Positions 10,791-13,281 of a DNA stretch of 43,352 nt are shown here, piece by piece. The DNA is from Candidatus Eisenbergiella intestinigallinarum (lineage in GTDB: Bacteria; Bacillota; Clostridia; Lachnospirales; Lachnospiraceae). Position numbers and translations under genes: made by a program. Positions within the stretch are counted from its first letter, which is position 1. Every line of letters starts with the position of its first letter. The DNA lies in NCBI GenBank assembly GCA_019120115.1, contig DWVS01000020.1:1-43352 (forward strand), given 5' to 3'. The notes below the pieces were generated by a model. That model worked only from the letters and a program-made list of their open reading frames with translations, searched no databases and had not been told where the DNA came from.

Positions 10791-11138
10791 TTATTTTACT
10801 AGCTCTTTTACCTTGGCCTTCTTGCCCACTCTGTTTCTCAGGTAGTTCAGCTTTGCGCGTCTTACCTTACCCTTTCTGACAAGTTCAACCTTCTCCACGT
10901 TAGGGGAATGTACAGGCCAGGTCTTCTCAACGCCTACACCGTTGGAGGTCTTTCTCACGGTGAAGGTGGCTCTGCTTCCGCCGCCCTGTACCTTGAGCAC
11001 AACGCCCTCGAATACCTGGATTCTTTCACGGTTTCCTTCCTTGATCTTTCCGTATACCTTAACGGTATCGCCTACGTTGATGACGGGAACCTCTTTCTTG
11101 AGCTGTTCCTCTTCGATCGCCTTAATGATCTCGTTCAT
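10791..11138 (-). CDS. rplS: 50S ribosomal protein L19
   Basis: [24 protein letters not shown]...FTVRK.S.GVGVEK.WP.HSP....[12 protein letters not shown]. True start is MNEIIK at 11138 after GGAGG. Confidence 0.97.
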
Positions 11139-11160
11139 TGCTTTTCCTCCTGTTTTCATA

Positions 11161-11197
11161 GATGTTCTTAATACAATTCCTGTAACAGAGGACCATC
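11161..11197 (-). ncRNA. L19 ribosomal protein leader (cis-regulatory RNA)
   Basis: Minus strand GATGGTC-CTCTG...AA-GAACATC hairpin directly upstream of the rplS RBS. Resembles the Firmicutes L19_leader pattern as recalled. Confidence 0.65.
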
Positions 11198-11216
11198 TCA
11201 TTATCGCAACATTAGT

Positions 11217-11245
11217 ACTATACCACATCCCTGTCCGGGACGCAA
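11217..11245 (-). promoter_or_regulatory. Sigma-A-type promoter of rplS
   Basis: TTGCGT-17 nt-TATAGT with TG extension. Confidence 0.6.
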
Positions 11246-11311
11246 GAACAATTTCTTCGAAATTGTTCTCAAATAATTTCTTCGAAATTTTCTCAGGGAA
11301 TCGGGATTTCC

Positions 11312-12760
11312 TTAGGAAATCCAGTACAGCCTTCCCGGGGCCAGCTTCAGGCCCAGCTTCTTCTGAAGGCGCAGGGAGGGCTCGTTTCCATCGAAAATCT
11401 GGCAGAACGGCACCCAGCCCTTCTCCAGCTGCCGGGTGATCAGGCAGGTCTCCAGCGCTTCCCCCATCCCCCGGCGGCGGCAATCGGGAAGCACCTCCAG
11501 CATGCCCATGCTTCCCTCTGCATGTATGCCCGCAAAGGCGGCAAGCCTGCCATTTTCATCAATGCCGAACATCTCTCCCGCCTCAATGCGCTCCAACAGA
11601 TACGTTCTGGAATGAACCGCATGATAGCTTTCATACACCGCGTCCACATCCTGCGGCACAAGCGGGCGTATCCGGAAATCCGCCGTACAGGCCGGGGGAC
11701 GTTTTCTGGTATACACAGCCTGTATGCACTCATTCACCAGATTCCGGTGAAAACGGCGGGCGATGCTGTCCCGGAGGAAATCCTGATGCACCAGAAAAAG
11801 CAGATCCTTTTCTTCCCGCGGAATTTCAGAAAGAAGCCGCTCTCCCATGTCCTCGTCGGAAGCGGAAAGCATCCAGGCTCCGCTGGGCCTGTCATGGAGC
11901 AGAACTCCGCTTTTCTCTGCGCGGATCACATCCGCCTGGCCTCTTCTTATGACCTCCAGCATGTCCGTATGGCTCAGCCGGTCCTTTGACAGATAGGAAA
12001 CAGCCCTGTCCGTCCGGCTGTATGCCTCGTACAGTTCCGGCCGCCTCTGCCTGGTTCGCTCCTCGGACTGTTCCAGCCGCCATTTTTCCACTTTGCTGTG
12101 ATCTCCGGAAAGAAGGACGGGCGGCACCGGACGGTCATGCCAGATTTCCGGTCTGGTATACTGGGGATATTCCAGAAGACCGTCCTGAAAGGACTCCGTT
12201 TCCGCCGATTCCTCGTTTTTCAGGACACCTGGCACCATGCGGGAGACGGCATCGATCATCACCATGGCCGGAAGCTCTCCTCCGGTCAGTACGTAATCCC
12301 CGATGGAAACATAATCTGTAACGACTTCCTCCAGCACCCTCTCGTCAATCCCTTCATAATGGCCGCAGAGAAAGATCAGATCCTCCTCGCGGGCAAGCTC
12401 CCCGGCCATCTGCTGGGTAAAAACGGTTCCCTGAGGGGTCACGTAAATGACACGCAGCCGGGGCAGCTCCCCTTTTTCACCCGCCGCATCAGGAATTGGT
12501 GAGCCTTCTTTTGCCCTCCGCATGGCGATCCGCTCCTTCACGGCCGCACAGGCATCGTAAACGGGCTGAGCCTGCATCAGCATGCCTGCTCCGCCTCCGT
12601 ATGGATAATCGTCCACCTTCTTGTGTTTATTCTCCGTATAGTCCCGGATGTTCACCGCTTCCAGCTCAATACAACCCTTTTTGGCCGCACGTCCCAGAAT
12701 GCTCTCCGACAGCCCCTGTGATACCATCTCCGGGAACAGGGTCAGAACATGAAAATGCAT
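11312..12760 (-). CDS. trmD: tRNA (guanine37-N1)-methyltransferase TrmD fused to a C-terminal GNAT acetyltransferase
   Basis: TrmD motifs [50 protein letters not shown]. The frame continues without a stop for about 235 aa, including GNAT motif [14 protein letters not shown] and N..S..L.KKLG. ATG 12760 follows GGAGG. Confidence 0.93.
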
Positions 12761-12774
12761 CGCACCAGCGCCTC

Positions 12775-13281
12775 CTACAACAATCCGTCCAGAAGATGCA
12801 CCCGCATCCATCCCTCTTCCACATTCACCTCAAGAATACATTCCCGGATTGCGGGAATCAGAAGCTGCCGTCCATCGGCAAGCCGCACGTCATAAACATC
12901 GTTCGCACCGGTCGAAATCACGTCCTGCAGGATTCCAAGCCCGCTTCCGTCCTCATTCTCCACCTGCATACCGATCAGATCCGCGATGAAATATTCATTC
13001 CGCTTCAGCCTTACGGCGTTTTCCCGGGTCACATAGAGCGTTCCTCTCCGGAGCCGTTCCACATCGTTGATATCGTCAAGCCCCTGAAATTTGAGGATAA
13101 CCATCTGCTTAAAAAATTTCACGCCTTCGATCTTAAGGACGCGTTCCTCTTTTCCGGTATCCAGAATCACTTCCTTCAGCCGCCTAAACCGGTTCGGATC
13201 ATCCGTTGTGGGAAAGACCTTCACTTCCCCTTTCAGCCCGTGCGTTGCCGTGATCACGCCGACCTGCAGTCTCTGTTCCAT
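12775..13281 (-). CDS. rimM: 16S rRNA processing protein RimM
   Basis: VG.I...HGLKGEVKV.P.TDDP.RF, EYFIADLIG, TGANDVY, LIPAI. Start MEQRL at 13281. Confidence 0.95.
   Translation of the reverse strand: MEQRLQVGVITATHGLKGEVKVFPTTDDPNRFRRLKEVILDTGKEERVLKIEGVKFFKQMVILKFQGLDDINDVERLRRGTLYVTRENAVRLKRNEYFIADLIGMQVENEDGSGLGILQDVISTGANDVYDVRLADGRQLLIPAIRECILEVNVEEGWMRVHLLDGLL

Follow-up and report, generated by a model that had tools for sequence, protein, structure and literature searches.

TrmD, the bacterial m1G37 methyltransferase, is an essential enzyme and an antibacterial target. The closest described relative of the arrangement reported here is TrmD-Tm1570 (PF01746-PF09936; PDB 8B1N), in which a second domain is carried on the TrmD C-terminus and for which the source (PMC11187310) reports that the TrmD domain alone retains most of the activity, 86%. 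There the partner domain is a SPOUT methyltransferase that also occurs as a separate gene adjacent to trmD, whereas the acyltransferase described below was never found free beside trmD. A further study (PMC9508554) describes contact between the TrmD C-terminal domain and tRNA, so that a tail attached at this end would sit near tRNA.

The window, a 43,352-nucleotide contig from Candidatus Eisenbergiella intestinigallinarum, encodes a different TrmD fusion. Its translation contains a single frame of 482 codons, without internal stop, in which a complete TrmD is followed by a GNAT acyltransferase domain, as a sequence-only reading of this DNA had proposed (Table 1). The ATG at 12760 is preceded by GGAGG, the gene lies in single copy between rimM and rplS, and the fused copy is the sole trmD found in the assembly, which is 92% complete. 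The gene run that holds trmD also includes rnhB. A promoter scan returned one site against 1.9 expected. Between the fusion stop and rplS, a 25-base unit with a near-palindromic core occurs in two tandem copies (11244-11297), a possible operator; one of the copies is missing in sequencing run X14, and a gap at 11048-11395 in run X15 is not counted as a finding.

Table 1. Features of the fused gene and its operon neighbours, in the order of transcription (aa numbering of the fused protein)
Feature	Positions	Strand	Basis
rimM, upstream operon gene	12775..13281	-	family scan
Fused ORF, TrmD + two-lobed GNAT, 482 aa	11312..12760	-	translation, Pfam and NCBIfam matches, junction-bridging contigs
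TrmD, aa 1-245, with [33 protein letters not shown] motifs	12026..12760	-	equivalog matches and motif inspection
Hypervariable loop insertion in TrmD, aa about 76-100, predicted disordered	12461..12535	-	alignment of relatives, model pLDDT
GNAT N-terminal lobe, aa 248-353	11702..12019	-	predicted model
R261: K/R in 59/59 fused, 26% of 73 other homologues	11978..11980	-	alignment
T351 of YTRK: S/T in 95% of fused, 12% of others	11708..11710	-	alignment
GNAT C-terminal acyl-CoA-binding lobe, aa 362-470	11351..11677	-	Pfam and predicted fold
Family motif H413-x-E415-G-S-M-G419, likely catalytic (from conservation)	11504..11524	-	alignments
GNAT motif A RRRGMG, aa 428-433, CoA pyrophosphate loop	11462..11479	-	sequence and established GNAT motif
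N459, invariant in 142 family members	11384..11386	-	alignment
Last segment and strand, aa 471-482, kept in eroded tails	11315..11350	-	model and GLYAT comparison
rplS (L19), downstream gene	10791..11138	-	named by sequence and operon order, without family scan

The TrmD-GNAT fusion is real and old. Contigs from four runs (three RNA-library and one DNA, from three studies) bridge the join with a frame free of indels, the RNA-library contigs being support for the sequence that says nothing on transcription or its level, and the 26 base changes listed within the frame create no stop codon. Of 16 other genomes of the genus, 15 carry the fusion, the one lacking it being an 84% complete assembly, and so do all 19 metagenome loci with trmD upstream among the 40 returned, one of them truncated in the C-lobe. 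The NCBI cluster of the window protein has 394 members, and all 15 listed are 482 aa long. The bridging contigs showed neither the junction stop nor the frameshift that the sequence-only reading had considered. The separate GNAT entries of 178 and 218 aa held at NCBI for Eisenbergiella might point to an assembly artefact or to strain-specific read-through, but the 218-aa entry coincides exactly with the C-terminal part of an uninterrupted 466-aa frame on a contig of equal length, and the recurrence of the fusion in many independent assemblies, metagenome loci and junction-bridging contigs refutes the artefact, to which we give a negligible probability. Natural fission was likewise rejected as the origin of the two entries, because they match internal starts of an unbroken frame. 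One database protein (P0080) joins the GNAT N-lobe, from the 11.7 kb region of the window, to the C-terminal part of YraN/UPF0102 at 7.4-7.7 kb, which likely stems from a nearly identical strain with a deleted or misassembled region.

The TrmD half passes both equivalog cut-offs (TIGR00088, 305 bits against 195; NF000648, 319 bits against 220), each match spanning residues 1-250, and has the SPOUT fold and the motifs GHYEG.DER, S.GD.VL.GGE and SGxH, which are invariant in 70 fused proteins. Likeness to bacterial TrmD (PDB 4YVI, 1UAM) thus comprises a full-length match above cut-off, the catalytic and tRNA-binding motifs and the operon position, with 48% identity to the H. influenzae structures; the window protein differs in having a 235-aa C-terminal tail in place of the usual last helix, and in its variable loop insertion. 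RPELY, at residues 240-244 (about nt 12029), marks the end of TrmD close to the first estimate of about 12020. The loop, also noticed in the first reading, is a real insertion but a hypervariable one, spanning 42 residues here and 26-64 across 18 relatives, with pLDDT below 50 at residues 90-98 of the predicted model. Other family members (L159, L164, L170, L165) have 45-65 extra TrmD residues, apparently in the same variable loop.

The tail had first been divided into an N-terminal subdomain and a GNAT domain; the former is a real region, but it is not separate, being the first lobe of a two-lobed GNAT. Residues 404-474 match FR47 (PF08445, 34.1 bits against a cut-off of 22.1) and residues 388-470 match PF00583 above cut-off, and the two GNAT motifs quoted originally were located at motif A and N459. 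A predicted helix at 241-258 runs the last TrmD helix straight into the first GNAT helix without a linker. In the predicted model of the GNAT half (pLDDT 95.6), the best structural match is bovine GLYAT (7PK0; Z 21.2, rmsd 3.1, 223 of 225 residues aligned), followed by 1SQH (Z 19.8) and 3EC4 (Z 17.7), while single-lobe GNATs reach at most 12.7 and RimI 11.1; the ranking, with which Foldseek agrees, rests on a predicted model, and fold alone does not give function. Together with the PF08445 match it bears out the original description of the tail as FR47/glycine-N-acyltransferase-like. By analogy with GLYAT beta-12, the strand in the last segment may return to the N-lobe sheet. The full-length fusion model has a pTM of 0.68, a value that does not fix the domain arrangement, and a prediction of the complex between two TrmD halves and the GNAT half scored 0.00 and was not used as evidence.

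GLYAT was not among the matches listed in PDB sequence searches; the Gly_acyl_tr_N/C Pfam models gave no match to the window protein at E<=0.1, PF08444 being listed for two homologues only; the RimI model TIGR01575 gave 13.9 bits against a cut-off of 86.4 (E 0.044), and the tail has two lobes where RimI has a single-lobe fold; and the Atlas search returned only FR47/GNAT clusters without a name. The FR47-like match is above cut-off, but that model spans only 70 residues and carries no tested function. TmcA carries helicase and tRNA-binding modules, and AtaT/TacT toxins have a cognate antitoxin as neighbour; the window protein has no such modules and the locus no such antitoxin neighbour.

GLYAT (7PK0; PMC12509317) and Drosophila CG14615 (1SQH) share with the tail a two-lobed GNAT fold and an acyl-CoA site in the C-lobe, but identity is 14-18%, and the tail is bacterial, fused to TrmD and marked by an H-x-E-G-S-M-G motif. 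The GLYAT study assigns catalysis to a Glu226-His263 dyad and binding of the glycine carboxylate to Arg228. Neither feature is present here: by motif register (E226-M227-R228-M229-A230, S262-H263), a mapping by sequence motif rather than by residue-level structural alignment, the putative counterparts of the dyad are S417 and Q454 and that of Arg228 is G419. Residues 406-427 contain no Arg, strand 452-456 contains no His, and neither strand has an Arg or His in any register. Position 454 is Q in 107 and H in 19 of 132 homologues, and G419 is kept in 130 of 132. What the family conserves instead is H413-x-E415-G-S-M-G, N459, S462 and W480; conservation of the motif in the free set is inflated because many free sequences were collected by the H.EGSMG-type motif itself, and its His is still at least 90% conserved in an alignment built from a profile search. 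Among full-length fused tails, H413 is retained in 57 of 59 and N459 in 58 of 59, suggesting that most are probably active. A GLYAT-like fold with the family's own H413-E415 motif in place of the GLYAT catalytic residues suggests that the tail likely works in a GLYAT-like manner on another acceptor, but is no member of the GLYAT family.

A profile search placed the tail in a family of 845 clusters (E<=1e-30), and most of the best 150 members are about 230 aa long. At E<=1e-25, members occur in 20 of 401 genomes of the host's family, one in each, 14 fused to trmD and 6 not; with one member per positive genome, fused and free GNATs may do the same job. The search that the sequence-only reading had suggested therefore recovered the TrmD+GNAT architecture (14 fused members) but not the unfused neighbours, as none of 72 free loci has trmD beside the GNAT within the DNA fetched, some of it short. 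Clustering of 538 ORFs around these loci yielded no conserved partner, the largest neighbour cluster being generic ABC ATPases at seven loci; the family scan of neighbours covered 112 of 136 immediate neighbours, near-duplicates left out. Translation genes adjoin about six independent free contexts (valS, asnS, mnmE, an RlmH-family SPOUT gene, gatC and rnhB), by raw count: valS is directly upstream in four related Oscillospiraceae-type loci (L104, L114, L127, L138), where the GNAT begins at the valS stop, and asnS is divergent in three loci. The free homologue upstream of rnhB (L069, genome G217) directly abuts that gene and has a contig break on its other side. Further fusions join this GNAT to NUDIX, riboflavin kinase, VanZ, LMW phosphatase (LMWPc), GIY-YIG and GDSL domains.

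To place the fusion among other trmD genes, frame lengths were taken from 390 genomes plus G000 and G007; of 400 genomes, 7 lay outside this survey and 2 had no trmD match. TrmD tails of at least 130 aa occur in 33 of 392 genomes and are of six unrelated kinds, frames shorter than about 330 aa being only partly covered: 14 full and 4 eroded GNATs, 2 full and 9 shortened EFR1-type flavodoxin/Fe-S domains, and one each of an ABC ATPase, an HD domain, a ThiF/TcdA-like domain and a HAD domain, these last four in one assembly each. The flavodoxin tails belong to 11 genomes of one clade (L039, L167, L034-L036, L155, L156, L163, L165, L166, L168), and the ABC ATPase, HD and HAD hydrolase fusions are at L032, L041 and L161. 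TcdA is a position-37 tRNA enzyme. The ThiF-family tail (L153:1691-3196(-), genome G158) has TcdA as its best NCBIfam match, at 145 bits against a cut-off of 304, and this frame would join two position-37 tRNA enzymes. The long trmD frames of G022, G046, G204, G199 and G156 were rejected as tails, being upstream open frames or internal insertions. Across 80 genomes a long TrmD tail was found in 7 and a long RimM frame in 2, one of them shown to be extended upstream only; this control is unequal because RimM is operon-internal.

Several tails have lost the likely active site. It is deleted or altered in 6 of 18 GNAT tails, and the motifs are intact and under selection in the other 12. Four tails (G333, G105, G163, G208), at four places on the host tree, have lost 35-60 residues, including H.EGSMG and motif A, and kept the N-lobe and last strand; they match the fused-GNAT profile at E 2e-11 to 3e-4 among the 18 tails, and the threonine at position 351 is retained in all four. 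Two more (G045, G386) carry His-to-Asn and Gly-to-Asp changes in the motif. The eroded GNAT tails with a deleted catalytic core (L037, L154, L158, L162) were missed by Pfam and NCBIfam. The flavodoxin tails present a parallel, since 9 of 11 lack SPTGG and both CxxCxxC motifs and all 11, eroded ones included, carry 4-7 K/R in a 14-residue RRKLRK-like loop that is acidic in the free paralogue of G000. As the likely active site has been lost in some related genera with the tail still attached, a captured passenger is likelier than a second tRNA-modifying activity.

Constraint on the fused tails appears to differ from that on their relatives. Two alignment columns are fusion-specific (K/R261 and T351) and one is specific to free proteins; fused GNATs also have more basic residues at 258, 352-353, 472 and 475 and a junction helix with a net charge of +1 against -1, differences that are confounded with ancestry. 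The GNAT half overall is net acidic (median -2.5 to -5). Of the two lobes, the N-lobe is the slower-evolving one in 13 of 20 fused sister pairs and in 4 of 21 others (p 0.004), and in 9 of 9 against 4 of 12 when only close pairs are counted; leaving out the junction helix and last strand raises p to 0.06-0.10, and the shift comes mostly from one fused clade (10 of 10, against 3 of 10 in the other). The retained non-catalytic lobe, K/R261, T351 and the basic patches suggest that fused tails may by now lie packed against TrmD or make contact with tRNA.

On a tree of 132 GNAT domains, 59 of them TrmD-fused, built by a quick method after removal of the eroded tails and of 23 loci that were duplicates or fragments, the fused label requires 2 changes against 43 when shuffled, which suggests that the fusion arose once or twice. 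On the host tree (TrmD+RimM, 121 genomes) it requires 9 changes, at least 3 of them forced, and one clade holds 21 fused and 21 unfused rows; 9 changes on one tree and 2 on the other point to repeated loss or transfer. Among unfused TrmDs, 18 of 76 terminate with a junction of the fused type, RP.LY.., which in several is followed by a short basic stump, and these ends may be remnants of lost tails; short Lys/Arg runs after such a junction are seen at L045, L180, L202, L204 and L212. Median dN/dS is 0.07 for TrmD and 0.15 for the GNAT, and 0.10 and 0.19 for its N- and C-lobes, from 32 usable, non-independent pairs out of 190, values indicating that the GNAT half is under purifying selection.

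What the tail does can be read in several ways. The original proposal was that m1G37 methylation is accompanied by GNAT acylation of tRNA, aminoacyl-tRNA or a ribosomal component, and an old fusion with intact motifs inside the rimM-trmD-rplS operon, the translation genes beside several free homologues and the TcdA-like tail on another TrmD would suit it, as would the Gly that replaces the glycine-binding Arg of GLYAT, if it widened the acceptor site. The proposal nevertheless gained no support from the comparisons, and several of them weigh against it: the family is found in only 20 of the 401 genomes, none of the 72 free loci lies beside trmD, a third of the surveyed GNAT tails (6/18) are eroded, five unrelated tails occupy the same trmD site, the same GNAT is joined to six non-TrmD domain kinds, and the fold is much nearer GLYAT than RimI, whose model falls far below cut-off. 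We regard such coupling as improbable, though conceivable in this genus, whose active-site motifs are intact. The stronger version, a bifunctional tRNA enzyme in Eisenbergiella and its kin whose fusion-specific basic residues hold tRNA while the GLYAT-fold domain, with a new His/Glu site, acylates the tRNA or its aminoacyl group, appears decidedly improbable. That the GNAT is a lysine or N-terminal acyltransferase of general protein targets, possibly TrmD itself, is quite improbable as well; two-lobed protein acetyltransferases do appear among the sequence and fold matches (VipF, Z 12.6), but such matches mainly cover the shared CoA motif and lie 8 Z units below GLYAT, with an rmsd of 5.2.

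Alternatively, the tail could be a domesticated and mainly non-catalytic appendage that stabilises TrmD or offers a tRNA-binding surface in place of the usual last helix, acyl transfer being secondary or dying out. The four tails that dropped the catalytic core, the universal basic residue at 261 with its neighbouring charges, the basic loop of the independently acquired flavodoxin tails, the slower N-lobe and the reported contact of the TrmD C-terminal domain with tRNA all favour this account. It is set against the net acidity of the GNAT half, the 12 of 18 tails whose catalytic motifs are intact and selected, and the lack of any tail in most relatives; moreover, a single tRNA-facing patch formed by the basic residues is conjectural. 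We consider it unlikely, if plausible. The broader generalisation that enzymes are captured again and again at the trmD 3' end and there become non-catalytic appendages that bind tRNA, with two independent lineages here, is similarly doubtful.

The reading we favour, and hold to be probable on balance, sees the tail as a captured N-acyltransferase of small molecules that probably retains its activity in this genus, works independently of m1G37 chemistry and is partly kept for structural reasons. A free GNAT gene would have been inserted in the variable slot behind trmD; on loss of the stop, the GNAT would have replaced the last TrmD helix and been co-translated with TrmD. The TrmD halves would form their usual dimer and produce m1G37, while the C-lobe would bind acyl-CoA at RRRGMG/N459 and H413/E415 would serve as base in the acylation of a primary amine, the acceptor most likely being some small metabolite and not glycine. 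Once the two were fused, selection would have moved towards the non-catalytic lobe, likely packing on TrmD or lending basic residues near tRNA, and such a shift would account for the lineages that delete the catalytic core and keep the rest. As a counterpoint to the captured-enzyme reading, most fused tails probably retain activity, and a coupled role may be under selection.

A literature search, with subscription journals mostly and bioRxiv supplements outside its scope, found no published account of the TrmD-GNAT fusion or of its GNAT family, so that, as the first reading had supposed, it is apparently undescribed. NCBI names the fused proteins as plain TrmD or enters the tail separately. 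As TrmD is essential and a drug target, it is of note that one lineage has a TrmD with a 235-aa tail. The intact-to-eroded series in two unrelated captured enzymes provides a clean natural test of fused domains kept after losing catalysis, and a warning that fusion alone is a poor guide to function. The tail itself is part of a large and uncharacterised family of GLYAT-fold proteins in Bacillota, which could produce N-acyl metabolites in the gut.
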